64,000 nt of DNA from an uncultured delta proteobacterium (GTDB taxonomy: Bacteria; Desulfobacterota; Desulfobacteria; Desulfobacterales; B30-G6), in NCBI GenBank assembly GCA_963842925.1, contig CAWJIL010000009.1, forward strand, positions 6,244 through 70,243, given 5' to 3'. Made by a program: the position numbers and the translations under genes. This document shows, one piece after another, positions 9,058 to 64,000 of the stretch. The notes beneath the pieces were generated by a model that was not told where the DNA came from, made no database searches, and saw only the letters and a list, made by a program, of their open reading frames with translations. The stretch's first letter is position 1. Each line of letters begins with the position of its first letter.

Positions 9058-9060
9058 GTA

Positions 9061-10282: not shown

Positions 10283-10319
10283 ATTCGCTTCGCGAATTTA
10301 TGAAACGCGGCGCTGCCGC
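10278..10319 (+). repeat. twin-hairpin 3' motif (TH) copy
   Basis: aaataaattcgc-ttcg-cgaattt followed by gcggc-gct-gccgc. The upstream stop codon TAA lies inside the first stem. Confidence 0.75.
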
Positions 10320-11568: not shown

Positions 11569-11585
11569 GATAAGTGTTTCAACAC

Positions 11586-11784: not shown

Positions 11785-11789
11785 ACAAA

Positions 11790-12692
11790 ATGTTCTTCGA
11801 GGGTATCCTTAGAGTTGTGCCGGTTTCTCTTGAGCTGGGTCTGGCCTATGCACTTGTTGCACTGGGCATTGTTATCAGCTTTCGAATTCTTGCGTTTCCG
11901 GACCTGACAGTGGACGGTAGTTTTGCACTGGGGGGAGCCGTTGCCGCCCGTCTGATCGTAGAGGGCGTCTCCCCCCTTGTCAGCATTCTCATTTCCGTTG
12001 TCTGTGGATTCGCTGCCGGCTGCTGTACAGGCTTTCTCAATACCCGATTAAAAATTAACAGTCTTTTGGCCGGCATTTTAATGATGACCATGCTGTATTC
12101 CATCAATCTGCGCATCATGGGCCGGTCGAACATTCAATTGTTGACCGTCGATACCATCCTGACACCCCTGGAAAACCTGGATATCAATCGCTTTATCCCC
12201 ATTATTCTTTTCTTTCTGGTGGTATGCATTGTCATGAAAATACTCCTGGACCTTTTTCTGCACACCCAGATCGGCTTTGCCATGCGGGCCACCGGTGACA
12301 ATGAACAGATGATTCGCACGCTTGGGGTGAACACGGATAATATGACCATTCTTGGATTGGGTATTTCCAACGCTTTTGTGGCATTGTCCGGTGCCTTGGT
12401 AGCACAAGATCAAGGGTTTGCAGACATCGGCATGGGGATCGGTATGATCGTATCCGTACTGGCTGCCATCATTATCGGGGAAACCCTCATTAAGGCGAAG
12501 TCCGTGCAACGCATGACACTGGCAGCGGTTATCGGATCGATTGTTTACAAGCTGATTATCTCCATCGGCCTGCGACTGGGTCTGGCGCCCACCGATTTGA
12601 AAATGGCCACTGGAATTATGGTCATTTTAGCCCTCGGTATTCCTGCCCTGAAAAAAGGGAAGGAGAGCAAGATGCGCCTGAGAGGTATATGA
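11790..12692 (+). CDS. ABC transporter permease (COG4120 type)
   Basis: Multi-pass hydrophobic protein. The track ORF starts at 11733, but its first 19 codons lie in RepA, so the Met at 11790 is preferred. Confidence 0.75.
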   Translation: MFFEGILRVVPVSLELGLAYALVALGIVISFRILAFPDLTVDGSFALGGAVAARLIVEGVSPLVSILISVVCGFAAGCCTGFLNTRLKINSLLAGILMMTMLYSINLRIMGRSNIQLLTVDTILTPLENLDINRFIPIILFFLVVCIVMKILLDLFLHTQIGFAMRATGDNEQMIRTLGVNTDNMTILGLGISNAFVALSGALVAQDQGFADIGMGIGMIVSVLAAIIIGETLIKAKSVQRMTLAAVIGSIVYKLIISIGLRLGLAPTDLKMATGIMVILALGIPALKKGKESKMRLRGI

Positions 12693-13474
12693 TGCTTGAA
12701 TTGAAAGCTGTCAGGAAAGTATTCAATACGGGTACGCCGGATGAAAAAGTTGCCATTGACGATATCGATATCGTGCTTGGCAAAGGTGAGTTCCTCACCA
12801 TTATCGGTAGTAATGGGGCTGGGAAAACCACGCTTTTGAATCTGATCACCGGGACCTGCGAAGCAGACAAAGGCGACATCTTCATCGATGGATTAAATGT
12901 CACCCATCTCCCGGAACACAAACGGGCCGTATATATGGGCCGCATTTTTCAGAACCCGCTCATGGGAACGGCCGCTTCCATGACCATCGAAGAAAACCTC
13001 GGCATGGCTGATCTGCGTGGTAAAACCCGGACCCTGCGATGGGGGGTTTCCCGCAAAAGACGCACGCATTACATCCAATTATTGAAAAAAATGAAGTTAG
13101 GGCTGGAAGATCGCTTGAAACAATCGGTGAACCTCCTTTCCGGTGGTCAACGCCAATCTTTGACGCTCCTGATGGCAACCCTGTCACTCCCCAAACTACT
13201 GCTCATGGATGAACACACCGCTGCGCTGGACCCCAAAACCGCCATGCGGGTGATGAAACTGACGGCAGAGATTATTCATCAGCATCAACTCACCGCCATC
13301 ATGGTGACGCATAACATGGAGCAGGCCATCAAATACGGAAACCGCCTGATCATGCTGCATGAAGGCAGGGTGCAGCTCGACATCCGTGGCAGTGAAAAGG
13401 AATGCTTTACTGTGGAAGAAGCGGTCAAGCGGTTTGGTTCAAAGCTTAAAGACGAGACATTGTTGTCATGCTAA
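12689..13474 (+). CDS. ABC transporter ATP-binding protein
   Basis: Walker A GSNGAGKTT, signature LSGGQRQ, Walker B LLLMDE. ATGA overlap with the permease gene. Confidence 0.9.
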   Translation: MMLELKAVRKVFNTGTPDEKVAIDDIDIVLGKGEFLTIIGSNGAGKTTLLNLITGTCEADKGDIFIDGLNVTHLPEHKRAVYMGRIFQNPLMGTAASMTIEENLGMADLRGKTRTLRWGVSRKRRTHYIQLLKKMKLGLEDRLKQSVNLLSGGQRQSLTLLMATLSLPKLLLMDEHTAALDPKTAMRVMKLTAEIIHQHQLTAIMVTHNMEQAIKYGNRLIMLHEGRVQLDIRGSEKECFTVEEAVKRFGSKLKDETLLSC

Positions 13475-13485
13475 AAACATATGAG

Positions 13486-13780
13486 CAGAGAATACAGAAG
13501 TCAGAAGCCAGGAGACAGAAGTCAGGAGACAGAAGAATTTGGATGTCGCTTCGCTCCTACAATTTTATCCGCCTTCGCAGAATACCACGGCATGCCCGTG
13601 GATGAATGCTAAAAATTAAGTTCATTGCTAGGGCGCGATGTCACCCCATGGAAAAGGCGAAGACAGGTATTTTAATCGCCCTTCTTTTTGACTGAGCCGA
13701 AGGCGAATCCATTATTCTGAATTCTGAATTCTGTCTCCTGTCTTCTGTATTCCCTTTCGAACTGTTTCAGGCAGAGCCAA
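13486..13780 (+). repeat. RepB element, long form with a nested insert
   Basis: cagaagN heptamer arm, ggatgtcgcttcgctcc, ~110-nt insert, gactgagccgaaggcgaatcc, then a ttctgaa heptamer arm. Confidence 0.85.
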
Positions 13781-13819
13781 TCGTCTCTGACCTGGCCCAA
13801 AGGACTAGGTTTTTACTAT

Positions 13820-15118
13820 ATGAAAATCATCGCCACCCATCGAAATGCGGATTTTGACGCACTGGCATCTGTCATGGCAGTTAGAATACTTTTTCCAGAT
13901 GCAATTCCTGTTCTTCCCAAACAGGTCAACCCCAATGTCAAAGCATTTTTATCCATCCACAAGGATGTTTTTAACTTCTATACTTTCAAGGATGTCGATC
14001 TGACCCAGGTGGAGCAATTGAAGGTGGTGGACACCAACAAATGGGAACGTCTGGAAGGATTGGCGGATCTCAAGACAAGAAGCGATCTTGATATTCAGCT
14101 CTGGGATCACCACCCCATACGTGGCAACATCACCACCCCCAGGAAGAACTGTGAAATCATCGGGGCCACCATCACCTTGTTGATACGCAGGATAAAACAA
14201 GAACGAAAAATGCTAAGCCCCATTCAGGCAACCCTTTTTCTTCTGGGGATCTACGAAGACACGGGCAACCTGACCTTTCCATCCACAACAGCGGAAGATG
14301 CCTTTGCTGTGGCCTATTTACTTGAGCGAAAAGCCGACCTGACGGTTGCTACATCTTTTTTAAGACCGGCTTATGGTGAAAAACAAAAAGAGATCCTTTT
14401 CAGCATGCTCCAGGATGCCGAACGTCTTCGGATAAAGGGGCTCACCATCAGCATCAGCCACATCGAGGTAGGTGGTCATGTAGACAGTCTGGCTGTGGTC
14501 ATGCGCATGTATCGTGAGATATTGAACGTCGATGCTGCGGTGGGAATTTTCTCCAACCAACAGAAAAATACCTGTATGGTGATCGGGCGGAGTCATGCCG
14601 ATGAAATCGACATTGGTTTGATCATGCGGGGTCTTGGCGGTGGTGGCCATCCAGGGGCCGGCTCTGCCATGGTAAAAAACAGTCATCCAAAGGATGTCCA
14701 TGATAACATTCTGACCCTGTTCCAGGGACACCAGCCGGCATCGGTTCAAATCAGCGACATCATGTCTTTTCCCGTGGTAAGCGCACAATCCACCGACACC
14801 ATGGAAGCGGTGGCTCTTCTGCTGCGGGAGAAAGGATGCACAGGTGTACCTGTGCTGGAAAACAATGCGCTTGTGGGAATTATTTCCAGGCGGGATTTTC
14901 AAAAAATTAAAAAAACATCCCAGATGAAATCACCGGTAAAAGCATATATGAGCAGAAAGATCATCACCATCGCACCGGGCAAGAGCCCAACCAAGGCAGC
15001 TCAGCAGATGGTGAAATACGATGTGGGTCGACTTCCGGTGGTGGAAAAGGGCAGGGTTATCGGCATCGTAACCCGGTCTGATACGATGTTGTACTTCTAT
15101 GATCAATTGCCGGATTAG
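13820..15118 (+). CDS. DHH/DHHA1 phosphoesterase fused to a CBS pair
   Basis: DHH (LWDHH) and GGGGH motifs, with two C-terminal CBS modules. Confidence 0.8.
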   Translation: MKIIATHRNADFDALASVMAVRILFPDAIPVLPKQVNPNVKAFLSIHKDVFNFYTFKDVDLTQVEQLKVVDTNKWERLEGLADLKTRSDLDIQLWDHHPIRGNITTPRKNCEIIGATITLLIRRIKQERKMLSPIQATLFLLGIYEDTGNLTFPSTTAEDAFAVAYLLERKADLTVATSFLRPAYGEKQKEILFSMLQDAERLRIKGLTISISHIEVGGHVDSLAVVMRMYREILNVDAAVGIFSNQQKNTCMVIGRSHADEIDIGLIMRGLGGGGHPGAGSAMVKNSHPKDVHDNILTLFQGHQPASVQISDIMSFPVVSAQSTDTMEAVALLLREKGCTGVPVLENNALVGIISRRDFQKIKKTSQMKSPVKAYMSRKIITIAPGKSPTKAAQQMVKYDVGRLPVVEKGRVIGIVTRSDTMLYFYDQLPD

Positions 15119-45724: not shown

Positions 45725-46360
45725 TCAGTCTTCTTTAACGGTAAAAACCCCCTGTGGAAAACACTTTTTACAGGGTGCATAGCCCTCCCAGAAAGCTTCC
45801 CACAGACTGGAAAATAAAATTCTGTTGGACTTTTTCGTTTGTGCCCCAAATGAACATGCCTTTTGATGAAATCGCCTGGAGCGCTTATTGGCGATGAGCT
45901 TCAGCGCCTGTGCATCCCATCCATACCACATACCCTGCTGTCTTTGCATGGCAAGACGCTGTGCTTTTAAGAACACATCCTGAAAACGAAGGTTGGGTGC
46001 TTTGAACAAGCAATACGCCCATCCCTGCTCAAGCATCATTTGATTGATAAAAATATTCTTGTGTGTATAGACATACGCAAGCTCCCTGCCATGGCGGTCT
46101 GTTCTCTCTTGACCATATACCAGGTATATTTCCCGGTTCTTAACAAGACGTGCGTTATAGTTTTTTGCTTCAATGCCGTAGGGCTCTGTGGGCTCATTTC
46201 CATGTTGCATTTCCGGTGCATTGATCCCGATATACCGCACAAACCGCTTGTTATCCAAAAGGATGGTATCCCCGTCCACCACACGCTTCACATGTTGCCT
46301 ATCCATGGCCAGGATGTGCGCCGGAGAAAAAAGAATTATCAAGAAGATCAGATAGGTCAT
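45725..46360 (-). CDS. secreted thermonuclease (SNase-like) fused to an Ada-type Zn-binding motif
   Basis: VVDGDTILL...VRYIGINAPE SNase motifs. C-terminal FHQKACSF...NRILFSS..EAFWEGYAPCKKCFP. Confidence 0.7.
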   Translation of the reverse strand: MTYLIFLIILFSPAHILAMDRQHVKRVVDGDTILLDNKRFVRYIGINAPEMQHGNEPTEPYGIEAKNYNARLVKNREIYLVYGQERTDRHGRELAYVYTHKNIFINQMMLEQGWAYCLFKAPNLRFQDVFLKAQRLAMQRQQGMWYGWDAQALKLIANKRSRRFHQKACSFGAQTKKSNRILFSSLWEAFWEGYAPCKKCFPQGVFTVKED

Positions 46361-46454
46361 GGCGCAAGATAACGATGTTCGATGTTCAAGTTTTTTTCAG
46401 TATTCTCTTCATCGGACGCAACACCCTGATATTCTATTGATTACCTTAAAAACA

Positions 46455-46492
46455 ACGGTGTCGCGTCAAAAATAAAACGTTTCACGATTTTA
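46455..46492 (-). repeat. TH-type hairpin embedding the stop codon of the SPL-like gene
   Basis: The coding strand reads ctaaaatcgTGAaacgttttat....gacgcgac. Confidence 0.55.
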
Positions 46493-47579
46493 GTCCACAG
46501 TGCCTCACCGCACTTTCATCCAGAATGGCGGACAGCCCCCCCCGGTCCGATGGCAGATATCCCATGACCTGTTCCCAGACATCATCGTCTTCCATACAAA
46601 AATAGACCGTCAAATCCGGTGCAAATTTACGAATAGCCGAAACCATGTGTTGATATATTCGGATACGAAGGGGTTTGAAATATCGCATCTTGTTGTCTAG
46701 GCCCGGAATAAACTCTCCGTAAACAATCGATGATTCCGGAAAACGCTGCTCTATGATCGGCTTCAACTGTGGCATGAAACGGAATGTGCCGATACTTATC
46801 CAGACAATATTCTGCGGGGACACATGGGCAAATATCTGTTTGATGACGTCTTCGTAGTCGTCTTCGCACCCATCATAAATGACCACCGGATCGAAATGAA
46901 ACCCCACTGGATAACCCCAGGATTCACATGCCTGGGCAGCCCGGAGTCGCGATTCTATCTTTGCAGTACCCCGTTCCTCTGTTTTTGAAACAACATGCGT
47001 GTTGAGTGACCAGGAAAGAATCGTTTTTCGATGGTGGTCCAGTGATGCAAACGGTGCGATGGAAACGGTTTTGGTCTTCAACTCAAGCACCGATCGCGAT
47101 TGGGATGCAAACCGTTCCACAAGTCGGGTGTTTAAATCAGAGCATTTCCCCCAGATGAGACTGTCGGTAAATTCACCCGTACCGATCCGGGATCCTTCCT
47201 CAAGAGACAAATGACGATCCAGTTCGGCGAACAAATCATCATGATTCACAAAAAACTGGCATATGGGTGGATGAAAATAGCTCTGCAGAATACAGTACGA
47301 ACAATCCATGGTGCAGAAGGAACCGATGTGAAGGATCTTATATCCGCAGCAGGTGTAGGAACGCGTGCCCGGGCATTCTTTGATGAATTTACCCTTGTTA
47401 CGGGTCAGCAAGAGGGCCTCTTTACCGCTTTGAATCGGGTCTTTTGTGCTGGAGACCTGTTCAAACAGTTTTTGGGTTTCCTCCACCACGCTGAAAGGAA
47501 GGTCAAGACGCGATACAATCTGTTTCGTCACCGGGAAATCAACGACATCTTTATGAATCAGGAGCTTTGAAATGCTCAT
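46482..47579 (-). CDS. spore-photoproduct-lyase-like radical SAM DNA repair protein (SplB family)
   Basis: CxxxCxxC motif FCTMDCSYCILQ. The Met at 47579 is preferred; the track start at 47615 is a TTG. Confidence 0.7.
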   Translation of the reverse strand: MSISKLLIHKDVVDFPVTKQIVSRLDLPFSVVEETQKLFEQVSSTKDPIQSGKEALLLTRNKGKFIKECPGTRSYTCCGYKILHIGSFCTMDCSYCILQSYFHPPICQFFVNHDDLFAELDRHLSLEEGSRIGTGEFTDSLIWGKCSDLNTRLVERFASQSRSVLELKTKTVSIAPFASLDHHRKTILSWSLNTHVVSKTEERGTAKIESRLRAAQACESWGYPVGFHFDPVVIYDGCEDDYEDVIKQIFAHVSPQNIVWISIGTFRFMPQLKPIIEQRFPESSIVYGEFIPGLDNKMRYFKPLRIRIYQHMVSAIRKFAPDLTVYFCMEDDDVWEQVMGYLPSDRGGLSAILDESAVRHCGLKS

Positions 47580-47606
47580 TTTGAACACACACTTTCTGGT
47601 TTTTTC

Positions 47607-47870
47607 TTGACACAACTTAGATCAATCTCTTACCATAACAGGGTCATGGCACAGAATAATAATAAAAACAAACAATTGATCAGCCTGTTTTTTCTGGGGC
47701 TTCTCTTGCTGAATTATCCGATACTCTCCCTGTTCAATGTAAAAACGTCCGTCCTGGGAATCCCCCTGCTCTGCCTGTACATTTTTTTGATCTGGTCTGC
47801 CCTGATCCTTCTCATCGGTATCACCACACGTCGACCCAGGGGATCCCTGCAAGAACCAGATAAGAACTGA
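47607..47870 (+). CDS. small two-helix membrane protein
   Basis: Two hydrophobic helices. Lies upstream of the SSS-kinase. The start may be the Met at 47646. Confidence 0.4.
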   Translation: MTQLRSISYHNRVMAQNNNKNKQLISLFFLGLLLLNYPILSLFNVKTSVLGIPLLCLYIFLIWSALILLIGITTRRPRGSLQEPDKN

Positions 47871-50796: not shown

Positions 50797-52995
50797 CTAA
50801 AATTTCAATCGGGCATAATAGGTCTTTTCCGAGGCTTCCCTGGCCTCACCCAATGTCCGAATCCCCATATCCGCTAGCAGCGAGACAAGTTTGAGAAAAA
50901 TTGTAGCCGTCATAAGGGCATCCCCCATGGCGGTATGGCGACCGACCACGTTGACGCCCAATCGGCCGGCAATGGCGGACAAGGCATGCTCATCATGGGC
51001 AGAGTTCGCCACTGCGGATAGCAACAAGGTATCCAAAACAGGTTGGATAAATTTTACACCCGTTCGGCTCTCACACATCTGTAGCATGCGCATATCAAAG
51101 GCTGCATTATGAGCGACCAATATGGTCTCTTCCGAAAATTTAAAAAAATTCGGCAGAACCACATCGATGGTGGGTTGGTTTTTCACCATATCATTGTCGA
51201 TCCCATGAAAATGGGTCGAAGATGCTGGTATACTTCGTTGGGGATTTATCAATTGATCGAATGATTCTTCAGTTAGAATGCGTCCATTAATAATTCGGAA
51301 TGCGCCGATGGAGATTATTTCGTCACCGCTGGAAGGATCCAGACCCGTGGTTTCTGTATCAAAAACAGTATAGGCAAGCTCGTTTAACAAGCGCGAGTCC
51401 AAGTTGGGGCTTTGACCGGGTTGATTGAATAAATCAAAGGCATAGAACTCGGGCCGACTTTCAGGTAGTACCGAGGCACGACGTATGGCTTTCTGTTCTT
51501 GGGGTCTAAATAGGGGTACATGCATGCGCAGGAAAGAACGCTTTTCACCATGATGCTCACGATAGGCCCATATTTCAATCCCATGATGTTCTAGAATTTC
51601 CTTGGGATGCAAGGGCATACGCTCATCTAAAAAAGCAAGCTGCATGTTTTCCCACTGTCGTATTTTCTCAATACTTATGGGTTTACCTGCCCACATAATA
51701 TCCACAAAAGAGAATTCGTTCTCAAGTGAGTATTCACACCGATAGTGGGTAACTTCGGTCTCTTCGCGAATCCGTTGTAGAAAAAACAAAAGGACCATCA
51801 TAATGGCATAGGTATCTACCTTAATCCACGACTCCGCCGAATCAGATTTAAAGCTTAAATCTATACCCAGTTTTGCGGCTGCCCTTTTTTGCAGCGCCAC
51901 CAACAGGTCACTGATGGCGATGGGCATTGTGGGCCAGTGCTTGTGCGGATGTTTGAATGTTTGGTTACCCTCCCGCTGAATTAACTTCTCCAGTGATTGA
52001 GACTCCGTATAAATGATCTCCAGCAACTGTTGCTGTTGTGAACTGCTTACATTGGGGTATTCATGTATTACCTCAATAGCTGATTTGACGCTGGCAACCG
52101 AGTGCCGGACTTTTTGCTGAAAAGATTGCAACAAAAATCCAGATAGCGCTTCACCGCGTAATTCCTGGGTGATTTCATTAAAGATGATAACAAAACCGGT
52201 GAACTCACGTTGGGGGCTCAATATGGGCGATGCCTCCGCTCGCAGCAAGCGATTGGCCAAATCAGTGATTACAAAGTTGGAACTTACACTTTCTTCATTG
52301 TTTTCAAGTCGCTTATGGATTTCCGCCAGGGCATACTGAATTATGTTCTCCTCAACAAAGTCTGAGATGGGCCGACCGATGCCAATGTGACCTTTACCGG
52401 ACTTTGTCGCTTCTACTGAATCCGTTTTACCTGTTGAGGCGGAGGCGCGCCCGATGGTAGCCTTTTCACTGAAAAACCGTTTGGCCTGGGAATTGTAAAG
52501 AATGATTCGACTATCCTTGTTGCAAATCAATACCGCGTCCGGCAGTTCTGCCATGATGGCAGCTAAAATATTCTTTTCCTCCTCCAACTCTGCCTTGGCC
52601 ACCTGGACACGCTTAAAAACGCTCTTCTCAAGGGTTTCATATTTTTCTGCGGCTGAATTAAGCTGTTGAATAAGAGGCCCCATTCCAAAAGCAATGTCCA
52701 TCTGAATACGATGATTTGGATTGGCAGTGTAAATCAGTGCGATTTCTTCCGATACTTTGGATAGCGGGATAACCAGTTTAAAAAATATGTGTGCCAGAAA
52801 AAAACCAAGCAACGCGATTACAGCCAGGCAAAAAACCAAGACCACGGGGAGATATGCCCAAAGACCCTCCTGGTTGGCGAAATTACTTTGATTCGCGGAT
52901 TGATGCCAGAAAAGCATCACCCATGCAAGCCCGAGCAAGGCTGCTACACTGAGGGATATGCACAGGGCCCACCAGATTTTGTTTTTATTTTTCAT
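50797..52995 (-). CDS. membrane-anchored sensor-like protein with a C-terminal DEDDh (DnaQ/epsilon-like) 3'-5' exonuclease domain
   Basis: Two N-terminal TM helices and a long helical/PAS-like middle. ExoI FDTETTGL, ExoII VAHNAAFDMRML, ExoIII HTAMGDAL. Confidence 0.8.
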   Translation of the reverse strand: MKNKNKIWWALCISLSVAALLGLAWVMLFWHQSANQSNFANQEGLWAYLPVVLVFCLAVIALLGFFLAHIFFKLVIPLSKVSEEIALIYTANPNHRIQMDIAFGMGPLIQQLNSAAEKYETLEKSVFKRVQVAKAELEEEKNILAAIMAELPDAVLICNKDSRIILYNSQAKRFFSEKATIGRASASTGKTDSVEATKSGKGHIGIGRPISDFVEENIIQYALAEIHKRLENNEESVSSNFVITDLANRLLRAEASPILSPQREFTGFVIIFNEITQELRGEALSGFLLQSFQQKVRHSVASVKSAIEVIHEYPNVSSSQQQQLLEIIYTESQSLEKLIQREGNQTFKHPHKHWPTMPIAISDLLVALQKRAAAKLGIDLSFKSDSAESWIKVDTYAIMMVLLFFLQRIREETEVTHYRCEYSLENEFSFVDIMWAGKPISIEKIRQWENMQLAFLDERMPLHPKEILEHHGIEIWAYREHHGEKRSFLRMHVPLFRPQEQKAIRRASVLPESRPEFYAFDLFNQPGQSPNLDSRLLNELAYTVFDTETTGLDPSSGDEIISIGAFRIINGRILTEESFDQLINPQRSIPASSTHFHGIDNDMVKNQPTIDVVLPNFFKFSEETILVAHNAAFDMRMLQMCESRTGVKFIQPVLDTLLLSAVANSAHDEHALSAIAGRLGVNVVGRHTAMGDALMTATIFLKLVSLLADMGIRTLGEAREASEKTYYARLKF

Positions 52996-53047
52996 TTTTG
53001 ATTTGCTTCCACTCGGGTTTGAAGACGATGAAAATTTTATAGGCCAT
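52985..53047 (-). pseudogene. internally deleted relic of a CheY-like receiver gene
   Basis: Encodes MAYKIFIV-FKPEWKQIK, compared with MTRKILIV...LKPEWKHIK in the receiver at 55575-55943. The nucleotide match continues upstream. Confidence 0.7.
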
Positions 53048-53088
53048 TATAAAGTCAAACGCCTGCGGCTGCAACCGGAAATTTTTGA

Positions 53089-53113
53089 TTTGCTGTAATT
53101 TGCGGAATGGATG
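53089..53113 (-). promoter_or_regulatory. conserved upstream motif, copy 1
   Basis: tttgctgtaatttgcggaatggatg, compared with tttgctgcaatttgcggaatggatg at 55985-56009. Confidence 0.5.
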
Positions 53114-53260
53114 CAGGCGGTTCAATGTTCATCTTTTCGATTGTCCCATAGCCTCTTGACCACTTGACCCATCTAGTTATATGGTATCGCAAAAAAAGAT
53201 ATCGTATGTATTTCACCATGACCATCGATCAGATGGGGATTCACGTGTAGAGGGAACAGT

Positions 53261-55585
53261 ATGAACGCCGAAGCCTTTGAATACCTTTCCAAGATGCCGC
53301 ATTTCTCTTTTCTCCCGGAGGAGGATATCCGGACAGTTGCTGATAAAGCAACGGTAAAACACCACAGCAAGGGGACTGTTTTTGCCAAACAGGACAAGAG
53401 TGTCGTGGACAGCATTTATGTGGTCACCAACGGTGTTCTCGAACTTTTGGATGAAAAACAGGGCACGCGCATGCATTCCGGTTTGATAGCGGCCGGTGAA
53501 GTGTTCGGCGGTATCAGCATCATGATGAACGGCAGCATTTCCCTACGAACCGTCATCGTCGATGAGGACTGCAGCGGCTATGAGATTCCTGAAGAAACCT
53601 TCCAGGACCTATGCCGTAGGAACAAAGCCTTCTACGAGTATTTTCTTGATAATTTCAGCAGCAATATCATCGACAAATCCATTACCTCACTGATTGAAAC
53701 CGGTCAGTTGAGTATTTTCCTGGCGGGTGTCGATCCATTCTCGTTCCTGCCTGAAGAGGAACTGGTTGAGATCGCGGCCAAGCTTTCTGCTGTTCAATAC
53801 CCGAAGAACACGGTTCTCTTTATCCAGGGAAGGACCCGCATCGGGCATTTATACATTCTCAACAAGGGTTCGGCTGAGCGGTATTACGAGGAAGCCGGCA
53901 AAAAAACCATGTCCTCGGTACTAGGTGAAGGCGACAGTTATGGCGGGATATCGATCCTCTTGAACGACGGTGTTTCGGTACGGACGCTTCAGGTGAAGGA
54001 CACCTCCTATTTCTATCTTCTCCCCAAAGACGTATTTCTGGATATATGTGAGCGGTTTCCGGACTTTTCTGAATTTTATACGGACATTTTCGGCAAGCGT
54101 ATGCTAGAAAAATCATATGCTGCCATCATTGCCAAAACCGCTCAGCCTGGCGAAGAGGGGCTCCAGTTTTTCAACCAGCCCATTTCCAACCTGTATACCA
54201 AAAAGCCCATATTCGGGCATGCTGATCTATCCATCCGTGACGCGGCCAATCTGATGGTGGAATATAAGATCAGTTCCTTGTTCATCAAGGATGACGATGG
54301 CAAGTGCGTGGGCGTACTTACCGAAAAGGATCTGACCCGCAAGGTGATTGTGTTTGACTGGGATGTGGACCGATCGGTGTCCGAAATCATGACATCTCCG
54401 GTGCACACCATTTCGGGCCAGGCATTGATATTCGAAGCCCTGATGGTGATGATGAAGGAGGGGATTCGTCACCTGGCCATCTTGGGCAGTGATGAAAATA
54501 TCGTGGGGATTATCTCCAACCGTGACATTCTGGCAGCACATGGGCAGTCGCCCTTCTTCCTGCTGCGGGAACTGACCAACGCCGACAGCATGAAGGAGAT
54601 CATCGACTGTCACAACAAACTGCCCCAACAGGTCCGGACCCTGATCAACGGCGGTGCCCAGGCCAAAAACCTGACCCGCTTCATCACCACCTTATCAGAC
54701 ACCATCCTGAAGAAATTGATCGAGTTTACGCTCAATGAGTTGGGCCCCCCGCCGGCAAAGTTCGTGTTCATGATTCTGGGAAGTGAGGGTCGCAACGAAC
54801 AGACGCTCAAGACCGATCAGGACAATGCCATTATCTTTGAAGATGTGCCCGAAGGAGAACTGGAAAAGGCCATGGCCTATTTTCTGATTTTTGGCGAAAA
54901 GGTCTGCGGCCTGCTGGATGAAGCCGGGTATGCGTTTTGCACCGGCAATATCATGGCCAAGAATCCCAAGTGGTGTCAGCCCTTATCCCAGTGGAAATCC
55001 TATTTTTCCGGATGGATCCATGCCGCCGGTGCTGATGACCTACTCCAAGCCACCATCTTTTTCGATTTTCGGCCTGGCTACGGAGACACTGGACTGATCA
55101 ACAGTCTCAGAGAATTCCTTTTTGAAACCCTGGATGGCTGGTCCGGGTTTTTTACACCGTTTTCGGAAAATGCCCTGCGCCTCAGGCCGCCCATCGGCTT
55201 CTTCAGGAATTTCTTGGTGGCGACCAAGGGCAAGCACAAGGACACCTTTGATATCAAGAGCGCCATGACCCCCATCGTGGACTTTGCCCGGATCTACGCC
55301 CTGAAAAACCGAATAGCCGAAACCAACACCCTCGAACGTCTGGAACAACTACGCATCAAGCAGGTGTTGAAGCAGCCGCAATATGAAGAACTTGAAAAAG
55401 CCTACAGTTTTCTCCTGCAGATCCGTTTCGTCCGTCAGGTCAAGGCAATGATGGATGAAAAGGGCAAACCGGACAATTACGTCAATCCCAAAAAACTGAC
55501 CCGCATCGAGCAGAAAATGCTCAAGGAGATCTTCACCCGCGTGGAGAAGTTCCAAACCCGACTGGAGGTCGATTTTATCGGCTAA
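53261..55585 (+). CDS. 2x cNMP-binding - CBS pair - DUF294 nucleotidyltransferase - DUF294_C protein
   Basis: Two cyclic-nucleotide-binding-like modules (GEVFGGISIMM; GDSYGGISILL), a CBS pair, the NTase motif LGSEGRNEQTLKTDQDN, and a helical C-terminal domain. Confidence 0.8.
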   Translation: MNAEAFEYLSKMPHFSFLPEEDIRTVADKATVKHHSKGTVFAKQDKSVVDSIYVVTNGVLELLDEKQGTRMHSGLIAAGEVFGGISIMMNGSISLRTVIVDEDCSGYEIPEETFQDLCRRNKAFYEYFLDNFSSNIIDKSITSLIETGQLSIFLAGVDPFSFLPEEELVEIAAKLSAVQYPKNTVLFIQGRTRIGHLYILNKGSAERYYEEAGKKTMSSVLGEGDSYGGISILLNDGVSVRTLQVKDTSYFYLLPKDVFLDICERFPDFSEFYTDIFGKRMLEKSYAAIIAKTAQPGEEGLQFFNQPISNLYTKKPIFGHADLSIRDAANLMVEYKISSLFIKDDDGKCVGVLTEKDLTRKVIVFDWDVDRSVSEIMTSPVHTISGQALIFEALMVMMKEGIRHLAILGSDENIVGIISNRDILAAHGQSPFFLLRELTNADSMKEIIDCHNKLPQQVRTLINGGAQAKNLTRFITTLSDTILKKLIEFTLNELGPPPAKFVFMILGSEGRNEQTLKTDQDNAIIFEDVPEGELEKAMAYFLIFGEKVCGLLDEAGYAFCTGNIMAKNPKWCQPLSQWKSYFSGWIHAAGADDLLQATIFFDFRPGYGDTGLINSLREFLFETLDGWSGFFTPFSENALRLRPPIGFFRNFLVATKGKHKDTFDIKSAMTPIVDFARIYALKNRIAETNTLERLEQLRIKQVLKQPQYEELEKAYSFLLQIRFVRQVKAMMDEKGKPDNYVNPKKLTRIEQKMLKEIFTRVEKFQTRLEVDFIG

Positions 55586-55943
55586 GAAGCCTTTGGACGC
55601 ATTCCACGATCTGTTTGTTTAAAAAGGGTTTGGTGATGTATTCATCCGCCCCCAGAACCATTCCCTTGGCAATATCAACTTCACGCCCTTTGGCGGTCAA
55701 GAAGATTATTTTAATGTGCTTCCACTCGGGTTTGAGTTTGACGATCTCGCAAACCTCAAATCCGTCGATGCCCGGCAGCATGATATCCAGCAAAATTAGA
55801 TCGGGGTTTTCCTTGGATATGGCTTCCAAAGCTTCCTCCCCGCTTTGGGCCACAGCGGTATCATAACCGTTCCTTTCCATCAGGAACTGCAGGGGCACAA
55901 CGATATTGGGTTCGTCATCGACGATGAGAATTTTCCGGGTCAT
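55575..55943 (-). CDS. single-domain response regulator (CheY-like receiver)
   Basis: KILIVDDEP, LILLDIMLPGIDG and FLTAKG motifs. ATG at 55943 is preferred over the GTG at 55961. Confidence 0.85.
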   Translation of the reverse strand: MTRKILIVDDEPNIVVPLQFLMERNGYDTAVAQSGEEALEAISKENPDLILLDIMLPGIDGFEVCEIVKLKPEWKHIKIIFLTAKGREVDIAKGMVLGADEYITKPFLNKQIVECVQRLLSR

Positions 55944-55984
55944 TATGAAGTCAAACACCACCGGCGTCTGCCGAAGAATTTAGG

Positions 55985-56009
55985 TTTGCTGCAATTTGCG
56001 GAATGGATG
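55985..56009 (-). promoter_or_regulatory. conserved upstream motif, copy 2
   Basis: See 53089-53113. Lies 42-67 nt upstream of the receiver ATG. Confidence 0.5.
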
Positions 56010-56020: not shown

Positions 56021-56054
56021 TATCCGCCGGCCCGACGAATCAGGCCGGCGGATA
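56021..56054. terminator. GC-rich 12-bp hairpin downstream of the symporter gene
   Basis: tatccgccggcc-cgacgaatca-ggccggcggata. No clear U-tract. Confidence 0.45.
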
Positions 56055-56082: not shown

Positions 56083-57837
56083 TTACCCTTTTATAGGCAC
56101 CCGAATCTCTTCCACGAGAGCCTGAATATGCTCGGGTGGTTCTGCGGTACTGCGAGCCACAACCCAGGCCACCGCAAAATTGATCAAAGCACCGATAAAG
56201 CCGAAAGACTGGGGTCCGATACCAAGAAACCAGTGTTCCGCAGTGTCCGGCAGCATGGCTGTCGATTTAATGAAGAACCAGCCCTTAAAGACGAAAATAT
56301 AGACCAGGGTGGTTCCCAGACCGGCCAACATGCCGGCAATGGCGCCCTTGTCATTCATCCTTTTGTTGAAGATACCCATCATAATGGCCGGGAAGATGGA
56401 AGAGGCGGCCAGACCAAAAGCCAGCGCCACCACCTGGGCGGCAAAACCCGGCGGGTTCAAACCAAGATAACCAGCCACGAGAATGGCGCCACCAATAGCG
56501 ATCCGGCTGAAGAGCAGCTCTTTTTTATCATCGATGTCCGGCATCAGCCAGCCTTTGAGCACGTCATGGGAAACAGCCGTGGCAATAGCCAGCAGCAGAC
56601 CGGCTGCCGTGGAAAGCGCCGCGGCAATACCACCGGCAGTTACCAGGGCAATTACCCAGAAAGGCAGATTGGCGATTTCCGGGTTGGCCAAAACCATGAT
56701 GTCCCGGTCAACCTTGGTCATTTCATTGCCTTTCCAGCCGTAGTCTGCGGCATTTTTCAAGCCCTTTTCATCATAGTACTGGATCTTGCCGTCATTGTTC
56801 TTGTCTTCAAACTTCAAAAGGCCGGTTTTTTCCCAGCTCGTAAACCAGTCAGGTACATCGGCGTATGCGATATTGGCCTCGGCACTTCCGACAGCACCAT
56901 GCTGAATGGTCTGCATCAGGTTCATACGTGCCATGGCGCCCACTGCCGGGGCCGTGGTGTAGAGAATGGCGATAAACACCAGTGCCCATCCTGCGGATGA
57001 ACGCGCATCCTTGACTTTGGGTACGGTGAAGAAGCGCATGATAACGTGCGGAAGGCCAGCCGTGCCGATCATCAACGACATGGTTAGACAGAAGATGTTG
57101 ATCGTGGACATCTTCTGGGCCGTGTAGGCTGCAAAGCCTAGCTCCACCAATATCGTATCCAGTTTGTCCAGCAGGTAAACACCGCTGCCGTCTGCCAGCA
57201 TCGCACCTAATCCCAACTGGGGAATGGGAATACCGGTAAGGGTCAGGGAAATGAAGATGGCCGGTACGGTGTATGCAAAAATCAGCACACAGTACTGGGC
57301 GATCTGGGTGTTGGTAATCCCCTTCATACCGCCAAACACCGCATAGATGAAAACAATGACCATGCCAATTCCGATTCCGAGTTCAAAGGAGACACCCAGG
57401 GACCGGGAAAACACGACACCGATGCCTTTCATCTGGCCGATAACGTAGGTTACCGAGGCCACCACCAGGCAAAGCACCGCCACCATCCTGGCCGTGTTGG
57501 AATAAAATCGTTCACCGATAAATTCGGAGACGGTGAATTTTCCGAATTTTCTTAAATAGGGTGCCAGAAGCATGGCCAGCAAACAATAACCGCCGGTCCA
57601 GCCCATGAGGTAGACAGACGCATCATAGCCCAGGAAGGCAATCAGGCCAGCCATGGAAATAAACGATGCAGCCGACATCCAGTCCGCACCAGTGGCCATC
57701 CCGTTGAGCACCGGATGAACGCCCTTGCTGGCAACATAGAAGTCACTGGTGGTTCTGGCCTTCGACCGAATCGCAATATAAATGTACAGGGCAAAGGACG
57801 CCCCTACAACCAACAATGTCCAAGTCTTGAGTCCCAT
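56083..57837 (-). CDS. sodium:solute symporter (subfamily paired with a DUF4212 subunit; probable acetate/monocarboxylate uptake)
   Basis: ~13 hydrophobic helices of SSF type. Immediately downstream of the DUF4212 ORF and acs. Confidence 0.8.
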   Translation of the reverse strand: MGLKTWTLLVVGASFALYIYIAIRSKARTTSDFYVASKGVHPVLNGMATGADWMSAASFISMAGLIAFLGYDASVYLMGWTGGYCLLAMLLAPYLRKFGKFTVSEFIGERFYSNTARMVAVLCLVVASVTYVIGQMKGIGVVFSRSLGVSFELGIGIGMVIVFIYAVFGGMKGITNTQIAQYCVLIFAYTVPAIFISLTLTGIPIPQLGLGAMLADGSGVYLLDKLDTILVELGFAAYTAQKMSTINIFCLTMSLMIGTAGLPHVIMRFFTVPKVKDARSSAGWALVFIAILYTTAPAVGAMARMNLMQTIQHGAVGSAEANIAYADVPDWFTSWEKTGLLKFEDKNNDGKIQYYDEKGLKNAADYGWKGNEMTKVDRDIMVLANPEIANLPFWVIALVTAGGIAAALSTAAGLLLAIATAVSHDVLKGWLMPDIDDKKELLFSRIAIGGAILVAGYLGLNPPGFAAQVVALAFGLAASSIFPAIMMGIFNKRMNDKGAIAGMLAGLGTTLVYIFVFKGWFFIKSTAMLPDTAEHWFLGIGPQSFGFIGALINFAVAWVVARSTAEPPEHIQALVEEIRVPIKG

Positions 57838-57850: not shown

Positions 57851-58108
57851 TTATTCTTCTTCGACGCCAAATTCTTTGTCAAGTTTGCCCACCAAGTGTG
57901 CATAAATGAAGATTAATGCCACGAAGATATACATGGACCCTTGTTGTGCGAACCAGAATCCGAGTTTGTATCCACCGATTTTAATAGCATTCAGGGGATG
58001 AACCAGAATGATTCCAAACCCGAAAGAAACCACGAACCAAACGATTAGGCATATGATTACCAGCTTTAAATTCCTCCGCCAGTATTCCGCCCGTGAATTA
58101 TCTGCCAT
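57851..58108 (-). CDS. DUF4212-type small subunit of the solute:sodium symporter
   Basis: 85 aa with two TM helices, starting ...YWRRNLKL. 13-nt gap to the symporter gene. Confidence 0.7.
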   Translation of the reverse strand: MADNSRAEYWRRNLKLVIICLIVWFVVSFGFGIILVHPLNAIKIGGYKLGFWFAQQGSMYIFVALIFIYAHLVGKLDKEFGVEEE

Positions 58109-58237: not shown

Positions 58238-60271
58238 TCATGATTGAACCATTTTCTTGATGGATTCAACGATCTCGGGGTTGGCCAGGGTGCTGACATC
58301 GCCTTCATCAACATTGTTGGAGATGGCTCCCAGAACACGTCGCATAATCTTGCCGGATCGTGTCTTGGGCATGTCGGCAACGATCCAAACCTTTCTCGGC
58401 TTGGCAATCTTGCCGATCTCAGTGCTTATGGCATCTGATATTTTTTGTGCCAGTTCTGGGCTGGCCTCGATACCCGGCTTTAACGCGATATAGAGATCCG
58501 GTTCTTTGCCTTTGATGTCATGATTCACCGGAACAACCGCCGCCTCCGCCACTTCTACCGCCGTCATGGCGGCCGATTCGATTTCCTTGGTGCCCAGTCG
58601 GTGACCGGACACATTGATCACATCGTCGATTCGACCGAGAATACGGAAATAGCCGTCCTCTGACTCAACGGCCGCATCACCCGTGAGGTATGGCCAATCC
58701 TGCCAGCGCTTGCTCTTGGGATCTTTACAGTACCGGGCGTAATAGGTGTCCACAAAGCGGTCGCGATCCCCCCAGATGGTCTGAAAACCACCCGGCCATG
58801 GGTTCTGAATGCAGATATTGCCGGCTTTGCCGGCTCCCTGGGGCAGGGTCTCGCCTTCATCATCCAAGATGATGGGGTGAATACCGGGCATACCGGGTCC
58901 GGCACTGCCTGGCTTCATGGGTGTGATACCGGGCAGCGTACTGCACAGGAATCCGCCGGTCTCGGTCTGCCACCAGGTATCCACGATGATGGCTTCTCCC
59001 TTGCCCACCACTTCGTGATACCATTTCCACACTTCCGGCTCGATGGGCTCACCCACTGTGGTCATGTGTTTGAAGTGGTAGGTGTATTTGGCAGGCTCTT
59101 CCGGTCCTAATTTCCTCAATGCGCGGATGGCTGTTGGTGCGGTGTGAAAAATATTCACATCCAGATCCTGAGCAATTCGCCAGGCCCGACCGGCATCCGG
59201 AAATGTGGGGACACCTTCATACACGACCGTAGAGGCGCAGATGGACAGCGGCCCGTAGACAATGTAGGAATGTCCTGTAATCCAGCCGATATCGGCCATG
59301 CACCAGTAGACATCTTCGGGATGAATATCCTGCACGTATTTACATGTACCGGCAACATAGGCCAGGTAACCGCCTGTACCGTGCTGGCATCCCTTGGGTT
59401 TACCCGTGGTACCACTGGTATACATGAGAAATAGCGGTGCTTCCGCCGGCATGGGAACCGGGTCGACCCTGGCCCCATAAAAGTCTTTTAAAAGATCGTT
59501 TACAAAGAAATCCCGCCCTTCTTTCATGGGTGTCGGAGCGGAGGCTTTGCCTGGATACCGTTGCCAGACCAGGACCTTGTCGACCTTCTGGCCATCTTTC
59601 TCGGCCAGGTCGCAGGCAATATCAGCATTCTGCTTATGATCCAGCAGCGTACCACTTCTGTAATACGCATCGGCGGTAATCAATACCCGGCTGTTCGAGT
59701 CTACGATGCGATCGGCGCAGGCCCGGCCGCTGAACCCGCCAAATACCTGTGAATGGATAACACCCAAACGGGCACAAGCCAGCATGGTGATGGGAAGTTC
59801 TGCCAGCATGGGCATGTGCAATGTAACGCGGTCTCCGGCTTTTAGACCGGCAAAATCTCTTAAAAGGGCTGCAAATTCATTTACCCTGACATAAAGTTCC
59901 TGATAGGTTAGGTGTTCATATTTCTCATCCAGTGGTTCAGGGACAAAGTGTATGGCTGTCTTGTTCTTGTTTTTGGCAAGGTGCCTGTCGACACAATTGT
60001 AACTTGCGTTGATCTTTCCCCCCACAAACCATTTCCAGCATGGTGCATCACTGGTGTCCAGTGTGGTGTCCCAGTATTGATACCAGTCCAGCAGGTCTGC
60101 ATACTCTTTAAAGCAATTCGGAAAATTATCCAGAGAAAAGCGATCATAGACAGCAGGATCGGTCATGTTGGCCTGGGCCACAAATTGATAAGATGGATAA
60201 TAGTAGTCCTCCTCACCCCAGTGAACCGCAATCTGCGCTTCCGATGTTTCAACAACTTCTTTTTCCGCCAT
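58238..60271 (-). CDS. acs: acetyl-CoA synthetase (acetate--CoA ligase, AMP-forming)
   Basis: YTSGTTGKPKG and YLTGD motifs, with C-terminal PKTRSGKIMRR containing the regulatory Lys context. Confidence 0.92.
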   Translation of the reverse strand: MAEKEVVETSEAQIAVHWGEEDYYYPSYQFVAQANMTDPAVYDRFSLDNFPNCFKEYADLLDWYQYWDTTLDTSDAPCWKWFVGGKINASYNCVDRHLAKNKNKTAIHFVPEPLDEKYEHLTYQELYVRVNEFAALLRDFAGLKAGDRVTLHMPMLAELPITMLACARLGVIHSQVFGGFSGRACADRIVDSNSRVLITADAYYRSGTLLDHKQNADIACDLAEKDGQKVDKVLVWQRYPGKASAPTPMKEGRDFFVNDLLKDFYGARVDPVPMPAEAPLFLMYTSGTTGKPKGCQHGTGGYLAYVAGTCKYVQDIHPEDVYWCMADIGWITGHSYIVYGPLSICASTVVYEGVPTFPDAGRAWRIAQDLDVNIFHTAPTAIRALRKLGPEEPAKYTYHFKHMTTVGEPIEPEVWKWYHEVVGKGEAIIVDTWWQTETGGFLCSTLPGITPMKPGSAGPGMPGIHPIILDDEGETLPQGAGKAGNICIQNPWPGGFQTIWGDRDRFVDTYYARYCKDPKSKRWQDWPYLTGDAAVESEDGYFRILGRIDDVINVSGHRLGTKEIESAAMTAVEVAEAAVVPVNHDIKGKEPDLYIALKPGIEASPELAQKISDAISTEIGKIAKPRKVWIVADMPKTRSGKIMRRVLGAISNNVDEGDVSTLANPEIVESIKKMVQS

Positions 60272-60440: not shown

Positions 60441-61124
60441 TCATCCGTGACGCTTCCGTGTTTTGGGTTTTTTTGGGCTTTTACTTTTTATGGGGTGTTT
60501 CTTGATGCCATTGTCAAATATTTCAAAGGCTATCTCAAGCGTTTCCCTGAGATAATCCTTATCTTCGTTGATAATACTTTTGCTTGTTTCCCAAAGAATC
60601 ACACCGGAAAACAGAGCCCAGAAAGTGTCGGCAATGGCCATGGGGTGTTTGTCGATAAAAACACCTTGTTGAACCCCTTCCTGGAACAGTTTGGCCATTT
60701 CTGAAAGCGATCGTTTGGATAGATTTTTTATCTCTGACAGTAACTCAGGCGTCAAATTTTTTAAGGTATCGCTGGATTGCAGATGGAACATATTAATAAG
60801 GATCATGGGGTCGAATTCGTACACGTCAAACATGGCTTCTTTGAGACCCGATATCCGCGATTCAATGTCTGAATGTGCATCACTGTTGAGATGTTCCAGA
60901 CGTATCAGCAAATAGTGCAGGATTCTGAGAGACAGTGATGCATACAATTCGTCTTTGTTCTTGAAATAGAGGTACAGGGTTCCCGGGCTTAACTCTGCCT
61001 CATGGGCGATGTCTTCCATGGTGGCTTTAGTGAAGCCTTTCTCAGAAAATACACGTTTAGCTGCCACGATGATCTGTTGGCGTCTTCGCTCACGTTCTCT
61101 TTCCTTGCGTTCATGTATTCCCAT
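60441..61124 (-). CDS. TetR-family transcriptional regulator
   Basis: HTH segment [29 protein letters not shown]. Confidence 0.85.
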
Positions 61125-63236: not shown

Positions 63237-63590
63237 CTATTTATTTTTGAATTCTTCGATGAATTTAAGCAGAATCATCTGCTTCTTATCATTGATCTGT
63301 GAAAACCGGATGCCCGCAACATAGATGTCTTTGGTGCTTTCGTTGAGGAAAATGACCTCCCCTTCTATATCGACAAGTTCATCTTCGATACCGATGGTTA
63401 TGGAAATAGACGTTTGGGGGTCAAGGGGTTTGTAGGTCTCGAGCAATATGCCGTCTTCAGACACATTGAGCGTTCTGCCCATGCCCTGATGATATGGCTC
63501 GCCGTCTTCACCCCTACAGACAAAATTCAAAAGATTCGTCGATTCTACCCGTATGTGTCTTCGCTTATCGTTGTCATCCATCCTGTCCAC
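63237..63590 (-). CDS. PilZ-domain protein
   Basis: RRHIRV (RxxxR) and NVSEDG (N-x-S-x-x-G) motifs. Confidence 0.65.
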
Positions 63591-63637
63591 CTGTCCTTGG
63601 GATGATGCCGCCCATACCCGTCAGCCGATGCTGCCTG

Positions 63638-64000
63638 CTAGGTCATCAGCTCTCTCTGCCGATTGTTCAGTACCTTTGTTAAGGAATGCGTGCATGTCGC
63701 GATATTATCAATAAAATTTTTGAACGTGGTTGATATATTGTCGTATTCCTGTTGGAGGATATCCGGGTTCAAGGTCTGAATTTTCAGATCCTTGGAGGCC
63801 AGCACAGAAGCATATTCCGGTTCATGACCCAAATCTAAAAATGGAATATAACCAAAAAAATCATCTCGTTCCAGATGCGCCAAAGGCACAAAACCGTCTT
63901 CTGTTTTCTGAACCAGGGAGGCCTTGCCATGCTGGACGCGGAACAAGCGCTTCTCATCATCACCCTGTTCGACCACTTTCTGTCGATATTTTAGATAATC
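63638..64000 (-). CDS. cyclic-nucleotide-binding-like domain protein (5'-truncated by the window edge)
   Basis: The frame stays open to nt 64000 (upstream codons DYLKYRQK). Contains VEQGDD...LFRV..G and DDFFGYIPFL motifs. Confidence 0.5.
   Translation of the reverse strand, partial: DYLKYRQKVVEQGDDEKRLFRVQHGKASLVQKTEDGFVPLAHLERDDFFGYIPFLDLGHEPEYASVLASKDLKIQTLNPDILQQEYDNISTTFKNFIDNIATCTHSLTKVLNNRQRELMT

Follow-up and report, generated by a model that had tools for sequence, protein, structure and literature searches.

A widespread long DEDDh exonuclease with a kinase-like core, linked to a stand-alone receiver and a DUF294 nucleotidyltransferase in acetate-assimilation loci

A stretch of 64,000 nucleotides (hereafter the window) from an uncultured delta proteobacterium of the Desulfobacterales lineage B30-G6 (assembly GCA_963842925.1, contig CAWJIL010000009.1, positions 6,244 to 70,243) encodes a membrane-anchored DEDDh exonuclease and a nucleotidyltransferase of the DUF294 family, close to genes for a stand-alone receiver (REC), a symporter, acetate--CoA ligase (acs) and a sensor histidine kinase with an SLC5 domain. 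In the module to which this long exonuclease belongs, a gene pair that is known but unexplained occurs in a widespread variant whose regulatory wiring is new. The pair is best explained as one corner of a conserved multi-gene signalling module for assimilation of acetate and short-chain acids. In particular, we favour the explanation that a two-component system controls the exonuclease, and that this enzyme works in acetate assimilation together with a protein nucleotidyltransferase gated by ligands; we assign it a probability of about 0.5. No paper describing the long form or its receiver partner was found in the literature searched.

The 732-residue exonuclease had been called unusually large in an earlier note on this DNA, made from the sequence alone, although it turns out to belong to a large family of that length. 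An exhaustive search with its N-terminal 529 residues as the sole query gave 1098 representative clusters; most of the best 150 of these have 700-730 residues, the remainder being mainly shorter and partial, and the long architecture is therefore fixed. When one genome of every species was scanned with the family alignment, at least 521 stretches proved to encode a relative. Gene linkage was counted in the best 80 of these loci, whose exonucleases are 35-47% identical to that of the window over nearly the full length, by finding neighbours by tblastn with the window proteins. They come from Desulfobacterales, Betaproteobacteria (Zoogloea, Azoarcus, Thauera, Dechloromonas and Burkholderiales), Pseudomonas, Chloroflexi, Thermoleophilia and Spirochaetia. 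The most constant partner of the exonuclease is REC, encoded directly upstream on the same strand in 75 of the 80 species loci. Flanks of 5 kb or more on each side are available for 51 loci, of which 39 contain the SLC5 kinase, 37 DUF294 and 27 acs. DUF294 is often the next gene after the exonuclease, ~10-170 nt downstream, and elsewhere it lies upstream of a kinase-REC-exonuclease operon. In Zoogloea, REC and exonuclease genes overlap by 4 bp and a 481-aa CBS-DUF294 protein starts 10 nt further on, and annotated Paracoccus denitrificans PD1222 has, on plasmid 1, the order acs-DUF4212-SSF-DUF294-ORF-REC followed by a 659-aa exonuclease (WP_011750780.1). A narrow reading drawn from the loci of close relatives alone was overturned by the one-genome-per-species scan. 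These counts bear out the statement in the earlier note that DUF294 and DnaQ-like exonucleases recur beside acs and acetate-type symporters, and so do annotated records from P. aeruginosa, Vibrio and Paracoccus and the papers on PP_0354/PP_0353 of P. putida; in these papers the role of the pair is still undefined, as the note also says.

Between the membrane segments and the nuclease lie ~450 residues which had been described as helical and PAS-like. The PAS part of this description holds, whereas most of the region is instead a degenerate histidine-kinase core of DHp-like helices and a CA-like domain. When compared by hhalign with the core of the neighbouring SLC5 kinase, residues 289-494 of the exonuclease correspond to DHp plus CA (E 1.4e-4). 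The top PDB matches of its AlphaFold2 model (mean pLDDT 73) in Foldseek are full-length sensor kinases with E values of 5e-19 to 4e-12, including WalK (9a5d, E 5e-19), VicK (4i5s), YF1 chimeras and ThkA (3a0r); Pfam HisKA and HATPase_c have no match in the exonuclease. The phospho-accepting histidine of the kinase aligns with Q293 in the hhalign register, and among 85 distant representatives, which are 26-40% (almost all 31-40%) identical to the window exonuclease, this position is mostly Glu (E44/Q10/T7/K5/R5) and His in none. The stretches at the N, G1 and G2 boxes read LLFFLQRI, MWAGKPI and RMPLHPKEIL in the window exonuclease versus MNLISNAIKF, DNGMGI and GTGLGL in the kinase, and N-box-region positions are rich in Q, A and F across the family. 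Because fold and profile match those of kinases but the acceptor histidine and the N, G1 and G2 boxes are gone, the middle region is, as judged by alignment and model, a dead histidine-kinase core. The family retains the generic HisKA surface residues R296, R303 and E307, and also W434 and H470. H297 was considered as an acceptor histidine and rejected, since hhalign puts Q293 there and position 297 is A, S or G family-wide. A shared receiver specificity deduced from the similarity between the DHp helices of the exonuclease and the cognate kinase was also rejected, since this similarity is the generic HisKA pattern.

The nuclease domain has all its catalytic residues. Pfam RNase_T (PF00929) matches residues 544-700 with E 1e-35 and 124 bits against a cut-off of 24. 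A word-index search gave about 50 full-length relatives of 715-744 aa in Desulfobacterales, 22 of which were aligned; D545, E547, H628, N629, D633, H686 and D691, belonging to ExoI, ExoII and ExoIII, are invariant among them, and in the 85 distant representatives N629 is kept in 80 and the others in 83-85. The nuclease domain is 39% identical to the PolC exonuclease of T. maritima (2p1j), and the nuclease part of the model matches exonuclease domains of PolC, DinG and DnaQ in the PDB by Foldseek, with a root-mean-square deviation of 1.8-2.4 A from the DinG and DnaQ domains. Two hydrophobic N-terminal segments, which form helices at residues 3-33 and 38-87 in the model, precede a helix-loop-helix at residues 73-149 with HAMP-like topology, modelled at low confidence. 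The earlier note is thereby upheld in its description of a membrane-anchored DEDDh exonuclease with two transmembrane segments and ExoI-III motifs, and the catalytic residues that it wished to see on alignment are present in both enzymes. As to the domains that it expected, Pfam found PF03445, PF10335, PF00929 and, weakly, PAS, and did not detect HAMP in the exonuclease. The PAS core is kept family-wide at C157, G161, L165, Y166, N167, G204, G206, R207, S208 and G266. Conservation is also high in the linker that follows the kinase-like core (R513 in 78, P514 in 79, Y517 in 76, F519 in 84, L521 in 82 and F522 in 78 of 85). A second near-invariant tyrosine-containing motif, ..TYYARL.Y, is found at the C-terminus (residues 716-731, 50800-50847) and, like the linker motif, lies outside the folded domains. 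Both may serve for docking or for modification, and neither is present in the short DUF294-linked exonucleases described below.

The DUF294 protein carries two cNMP-like and two CBS modules, as the earlier note had it: Pfam matches cNMP_binding twice (E 5e-25, 87.7 bits), CBS twice (5e-24, 84.8 bits), DUF294 PF03445 (2.5e-47, 160.7 bits) and DUF294_C PF10335 (8e-43, 146.1 bits), with weak matches to GlnD_UR_UTase and GlnE. The Pol-beta-type G-[SK]...D-x-D motif (GSEGRNEQTLKTDQDNA) is intact and invariant in the alignment of relatives. A model of residues 434-774 (pLDDT 74, pTM 0.73) has just four Foldseek matches in the PDB at E<=1e-3, and all of them are protein adenylyltransferases, namely DrrA/SidM with Rab8a (6yx5_B, TM 0.64) and both halves of GlnE (3k7d and 1v4a, TM ~0.6). 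Over these matches TM is 0.59-0.65, E 2e-6 to 9e-5 and sequence identity 12-16%, and aminoglycoside nucleotidyltransferases rank far behind. The earlier note had suggested a write/erase system that acts on a nucleotide-tagged molecule or on an oligonucleotide signal tied to carbon status; the resemblance of the model speaks more for a protein that receives a nucleotide tag than for RNA tailing or synthesis of an oligonucleotide signal. The sensor set varies with lineage: the CBS pair is accompanied by two cNMP-like domains in the window and by one cNMP domain in proteobacteria, and Zoogloea has the CBS pair alone. Both cNMP-like domains of the window protein (residues ~78-100 and ~225-245, within 53261-54055 on the plus strand) read FGG or YGG, and the Arg-Thr that follows is kept (..LRT and ..VRT). 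Domains that bind cAMP or cGMP usually have FGE at that site, and the sequence suggests that the ligand here may be other than cAMP or cGMP.

Some loci of the family vary in their arrangement. In a betaproteobacterial locus (L040, ~1600-14100) the exonuclease-DUF294-DUF4212-SSF unit occurs twice in tandem, and in L076 two DUF294 genes follow the exonuclease. On a 5.6-kb contig of a metagenome-assembled genome (L094, 2313-4748), a protein of 811 aa (P0203) joins the PAS and dead-kinase module in frame to the catalytic domain of DUF294. The junction lies exactly at the first nuclease strand (..LTELTYTV/LIRAIS..), as if a deletion had joined adjacent exonuclease and DUF294 genes; the fusion was seen once and might be an artefact of assembly.

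DUF294 is also paired with exonucleases of another kind. Annotated P. aeruginosa has the order yjcH-actP-DUF294-exonuclease with an exonuclease of 208 aa, and in annotated Vibrio pelagius DUF294 is followed by a 240-aa exonuclease, the two genes being separated by a 4-bp overlap or a 1-bp gap in these species. These short exonucleases belong to other DEDDh subfamilies (NF006601; near NF006602) and are ~26% identical to the nuclease domain of the window. NF006601 (PRK09145) scores 256 bits with the P. aeruginosa exonuclease and 94.6 bits, below its cut-off of 189, with that of the window. The window exonuclease, with 732 aa including ~530 aa of N-terminal modules, is far from the single domain of ~200-240 aa of the short type, and it shares with that type an adjoining DUF294 gene, which is divergent. 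The link of DUF294 with two or more exonuclease lineages that are not orthologues speaks for a functional couple. In pseudomonads the short pair is under the control of the CrbS/CrbR (MxtR/ErdR) system: ErdR, the homologue of CrbR, directly controls PP_0354/PP_0353 of P. putida and Pflu5625 of P. fluorescens, and deletions of PP_0354/PP_0353 cause mild to moderate phenotypes with pyruvate and with propionate. Protein modification and mRNA degradation are raised as speculations by the authors (PMC9927547).

In the explanation that we favour, the SLC5 kinase would report availability or flux of a solute and phosphorylate REC. The docking site for phosphorylated REC would be the four-helix bundle that the DHp-like helices form in the exonuclease dimer, by analogy with the binding of response regulators to their kinases and of DivK~P to the pseudokinase DivL, and this docking would switch the exonuclease on or off, with PAS providing a second input. 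Adenine-nucleotide or cNMP-like ligands would cause the DUF294 enzyme to nucleotidylate a target protein. The exonuclease would act in the same pathway as the DUF294 enzyme, and the most economical assumption is that it hydrolyses the nucleotide phosphodiester made by the transferase. Such an eraser role is chemically plausible, because exonucleolytic cleavage and removal of the tag both hydrolyse a phosphodiester and release a 5'-nucleoside monophosphate (5'-NMP). The most specific version is a reversible protein-nucleotidylation switch, in which the CBS/cNMP-gated DUF294 enzyme writes an AMP or UMP tag and the DEDDh enzyme, switched in the long form by phosphorylated REC docked on the dead-kinase scaffold, erases it with release of 5'-NMP, so that the transporter-like sensor kinase sets the state of Acs, the symporter or another protein of the acetate pathway without a transcription factor; this version we regard as distinctly unlikely.

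Several points weigh against the favoured explanation as a whole. To our knowledge, no DEDDh enzyme removes a nucleotide from a protein, and the eraser role would be without known precedent. A nucleic acid as substrate would be in keeping with the nuclease domain, whose nearest relatives are DNA proofreading domains of the PolC type. Docking of REC on the pseudo-kinase is suggested by gene order and analogy only, and the DHp-like helix resembles that of the cognate kinase only generically, which does not imply partner specificity. Both structure models have moderate confidence (pLDDT ~73). The P. putida deletions gave no acetate phenotype. Finally, several close relatives lack DUF294 at the locus, and orthologues of it with 65-90% identity are encoded elsewhere with no exonuclease beside them.

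At loci of relatives whose exonucleases are 40-83% identical, the order is TetR, acs, symporter, a receiver of 96-124 aa and the exonuclease, and DUF294 is absent; the SLC5 kinase is on the opposite strand, mostly adjoining the exonuclease, and beyond it are a spore-photoproduct-lyase-like gene, an SNase-like gene and EF-G. The stop of REC overlaps the start of the exonuclease by 1-7 bp, mostly 4 bp, in the called genes of seven loci, and in an eighth (L003) REC ends 3 nt short of it; at most of the loci with the order just given, the overlap is 1-4 bp. Gene calling at the loci of the relatives gave no two-component regulator with a DNA-binding domain within +/-10 kb. The window differs in that DUF294 lies between REC and the exonuclease on the opposite strand. 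Directly upstream of the exonuclease it carries pieces of a second REC copy: positions 53024-53113 repeat 55920-56009 directly with 79% identity over 90 nt, and 52996-53022 repeat 55709-55735, a 27-nt piece internal to REC, with 93% identity. The duplicated pieces are thus the REC promoter, the first REC codons and this internal segment, and a 20-codon remnant ORF (MAYKIFIVFKPEWKQIKNEK, 52985-53047) overlaps the ATG of the exonuclease. A 22-nt promoter motif occurs solely at these two sites, where 0 are expected. A shared operator of the REC, exonuclease and acs promoters was considered and rejected, since the motif is confined to the two duplicated promoters. The 93%-identical relative (L004) has the same insertion, in which the remnant is the 3' half of a second REC copy. 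Because of the decayed REC copy upstream, and because L004 shares the insertion with a different remnant, the divergent order is a recent local rearrangement that duplicated REC and is common only to the window and L004. Through the duplicated REC promoter, the exonuclease would have kept a promoter after the rearrangement.

The intact REC of the window has the usual phospho-acceptor residues (DD, D53, T83 and K105), and its gene is convergent with DUF294, the 3' ends overlapping by 11 bp. In a Desulfobacterales sub-lineage (L001 8397-9608, L005 8398-9553 and L007 3240-4468), genes for a TPR protein and for a 177-aa protein without Pfam match lie between REC and a longer symporter (657-671 aa); the window, L003 and L004 have DUF4212 and a symporter of 584-590 aa instead. 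The C-terminus of the intact REC of the window resembles the L003 type, and comparison of the sequences suggests recombination between lineages at REC. An ORF of 165-177 aa upstream of REC was considered as an extra component and rejected, since the Desulfobacterales and Paracoccus proteins are dissimilar and have no Pfam match.

Alternatively, the exonuclease might be a 3'-5' exoribonuclease (or DNase) under regulation, which shortens or degrades particular RNAs: mRNAs of acs or the transporter, for instance, a small RNA, or tRNAs at their 3' ends. The two-component system would then have a post-transcriptional output, with DUF294 modifying proteins independently or modifying the exonuclease itself. 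The DEDDh fold and catalytic residues are typical of nucleic-acid exonucleases, the closest relatives are domains of PolC, DnaQ and DinG, the cluster has a kinase and a receiver without a DNA-binding output, and degradation of mRNA is among the speculations on the P. putida pair mentioned above. However, the protein has no RNA-binding domain, an Rfam search of the entire window matched no family, and the translational coupling of at least two non-orthologous DEDDh lineages to a GlnE/DrrA-like transferase is left unexplained, so that we hold this alternative to be rather unlikely. We also judge it unlikely, to a slightly greater degree, that the dead kinase core is a mere scaffold for dimerisation and signal transmission from PAS to the nuclease, and that REC is a phosphate sink or acts elsewhere, on DUF294, the transporter or motility. 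Strong conservation of the PAS core, which suggests a PAS ligand or partner of its own, the generic nature of the DHp similarity and the five of 80 loci with no REC upstream agree with such a scaffold. On the other hand, REC is more tightly associated with the exonuclease (75/80) than with the kinase (39/51), the REC and exonuclease genes overlap, and the HisKA-helix surface residues are kept despite loss of the histidine.

The juxtaposition of DUF294 and the exonuclease in the window could be regarded as an accident of the rearrangement with no functional meaning, since the arrangement is common only to the 93%-identical relative, and the other five distinct close-relative loci examined have no DUF294, close orthologues of which are found elsewhere. 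The presence of DUF294 in 37 of the 51 fully flanked loci across phyla contradicts this, as does the same pairing in annotated Pseudomonas, Vibrio and Paracoccus records, which makes such an accident very improbable. Least credible, and close to negligible, is a role in anti-phage defence or as cargo of a mobile element. The nuclease domain does match a Cas-associated DEDDh model of PADLOC and PDC-S48, yet these matches are confined to the generic nuclease domain and DUF294 has none, EF-G, purC, dxs, acs and the symporter remain syntenic from one genus to another, and no integrase or transposase is called in the loci examined.

Table 1. Features of the exonuclease/DUF294 locus, in window coordinates
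Feature	Position	Strand	Support or remark
Two-helix membrane ORF, 74 aa, just upstream of the SLC5 kinase	47646..47870	+	46-82% identity, 5 loci aligned
SLC5-domain sensor histidine kinase, CrbS-like, 903 aa	47967..50678	+	SSF (weak), HisKA, HATPase_c (Pfam)
Long exonuclease, 732 aa: TM1-TM2, HAMP-like, PAS, degenerate DHp+CA, linker, DEDDh	50797..52995	-	
DEDDh 3'-5' exonuclease domain (predicted), residues 540-706, and conserved C-terminal tail ...EAREASEKTYYARLKF	50797..51378	-	
Linker, residues 511-528, near-invariant SRPEFY(A/D)FDLF (512-522)	51412..51465	-	Predicted disordered, low pLDDT
Degenerate histidine-kinase core: DHp-like helices 275-346, CA-like alpha/beta domain 356-494	51514..52170	-	
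PAS domain, residues ~150-275	52171..52548	-	Weak Pfam PAS matches at 150-276; strands/helices in model
N-terminal hydrophobic (transmembrane) segments, residues 5-30 and 41-80, loop of ~10-15 residues	52756..52983	-	Kyte-Doolittle
Decayed second copy of REC promoter and REC gene, directly upstream of exonuclease	52985..53113	-	
DUF294 nucleotidyltransferase, 774 aa	53261..55585	+	
Its domains: cNMP-like 1 ~30-125, cNMP-like 2 178-265, CBS pair 308-426, catalytic 453-589, DUF294_C 630-771			
Stand-alone receiver (REC), 122 aa	55575..55943	-	Pfam Response_reg E 2e-29
G+C-rich terminator-like hairpin, interval between symporter gene and REC promoter	56021..56054	-	Inverted repeat, 15-nt arms, 93% complementary
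VC_2705-family Na/solute symporter, large subunit	56083-57837	-	TIGR03648 834 bits
DUF4212 small symporter subunit	57851-58108	-	TIGR03647 111 bits
acs, acetate--CoA ligase	58238..60271	-	NF001208 779 bits, TIGR02188 762 bits, both above cut-off
TetR-family regulator, upstream of acs	60441..61124	-	Syntenic in relatives

The exonuclease and DUF294 ORFs are both intact and divergent with 265 bp between them, in agreement with the earlier note, which did not include REC and the CrbS-like SLC5 kinase (Table 1). The kinase gene is convergent with that of the exonuclease, and its HATPase_c domain reaches residue 901 of 903, leaving no C-terminal receiver domain. A scan for sigma-70 promoters and terminators found 10 promoter-like sites versus 7.7 expected. 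The 74-aa ORF, with two hydrophobic helices, precedes the SLC5 kinase in every Desulfobacterales locus examined; its product has no Pfam match and resembles the DUF4212 and DUF485 small subunits of related symporters. The spore-photoproduct-lyase-like radical-SAM gene and the SNase-like nuclease gene (45725-47615, minus strand), the product of the latter having a weak Ada Zn-binding match, keep their position in the interval from the kinase to EF-G in most Desulfobacterales loci examined and form a second nuclease-type pair nearby. A few kb past acs, beyond purC and a ParB-like gene, a PilZ-domain gene and a PatA_N/cNMP-binding gene (63237-63976, minus strand) are further nucleotide-signalling genes near the cluster, syntenic in L001-L003 and L005.

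In pseudomonads, few genes depend on CrbS/CrbR as strongly as those of the DUF294/exonuclease operon, which has been unexplained since 2017. In many other phyla the pair is wired to a relay of kinase, receiver and pseudo-kinase and not to a transcription factor, and the AMPylase-like model of the transferase narrows its substrate class. If the relay is true, a two-component system would act through an exonuclease that is joined to a repurposed kinase. Response regulators would then have a new kind of target, and this would bear on how bacteria tune the use of acetate, pyruvate and propionate. The long form is carried by P. denitrificans PD1222, which is cultured and genetically tractable.

Related systems are known. 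PP_0354/PP_0353 (PA3233/PA3232-type) also consists of DUF294 and a DEDDh exonuclease beside or co-regulated with an acetate symporter or acs, and is controlled ultimately from an SLC5-type sensor kinase, whereas its exonuclease is a soluble protein of 208 aa with no transmembrane, PAS or kinase-like module or REC partner, and its control is transcriptional via the DNA-binding CrbR. Like those of the SLC5/STAC two-component systems CrbS/CrbR and CbrA/CbrB, the window kinase combines an SLC5-like membrane domain with HisKA and HATPase_c in one protein, and its gene has acs and an acetate-type symporter as neighbours. It is not a hybrid, whereas in the CrbS/CrbR system a hybrid kinase with a C-terminal receiver works with the LuxR-type regulator CrbR, and it has no LuxR- or NtrC-type regulator nearby, the sole adjacent receiver being the exonuclease-coupled REC. 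In Caulobacter, the pseudo-histidine kinase DivL senses whether the single-domain regulator DivK is phosphorylated (PMC4211667). It has a kinase scaffold minus the acceptor histidine and a stand-alone receiver partner, as the window exonuclease would, and is a model for information flow from a receiver to a kinase-like protein; it differs in having no fused enzyme and in signalling to CckA, there is no close sequence relationship, and in the window system the binding of REC is only presumed. GlnE (glutamine synthetase adenylyltransferase), GlnD and DrrA/SidM of Legionella share with DUF294 the G-[SK]...D-x-D motif and, in the model, the fold of a catalytic and a helical domain. They differ in sensor domains, which in DUF294 are CBS with or without cNMP-like domains, and their tags are removed by a second nucleotidyltransferase domain, an HD domain or SidD, never by a DEDDh exonuclease. 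The proofreading domains of PolC and DnaQ have the fold and DEDDh residues of the window nuclease, which, unlike them, is not part of a polymerase or helicase and instead belongs to a membrane-anchored fusion with signalling domains, encoded in a cluster for acetate assimilation.

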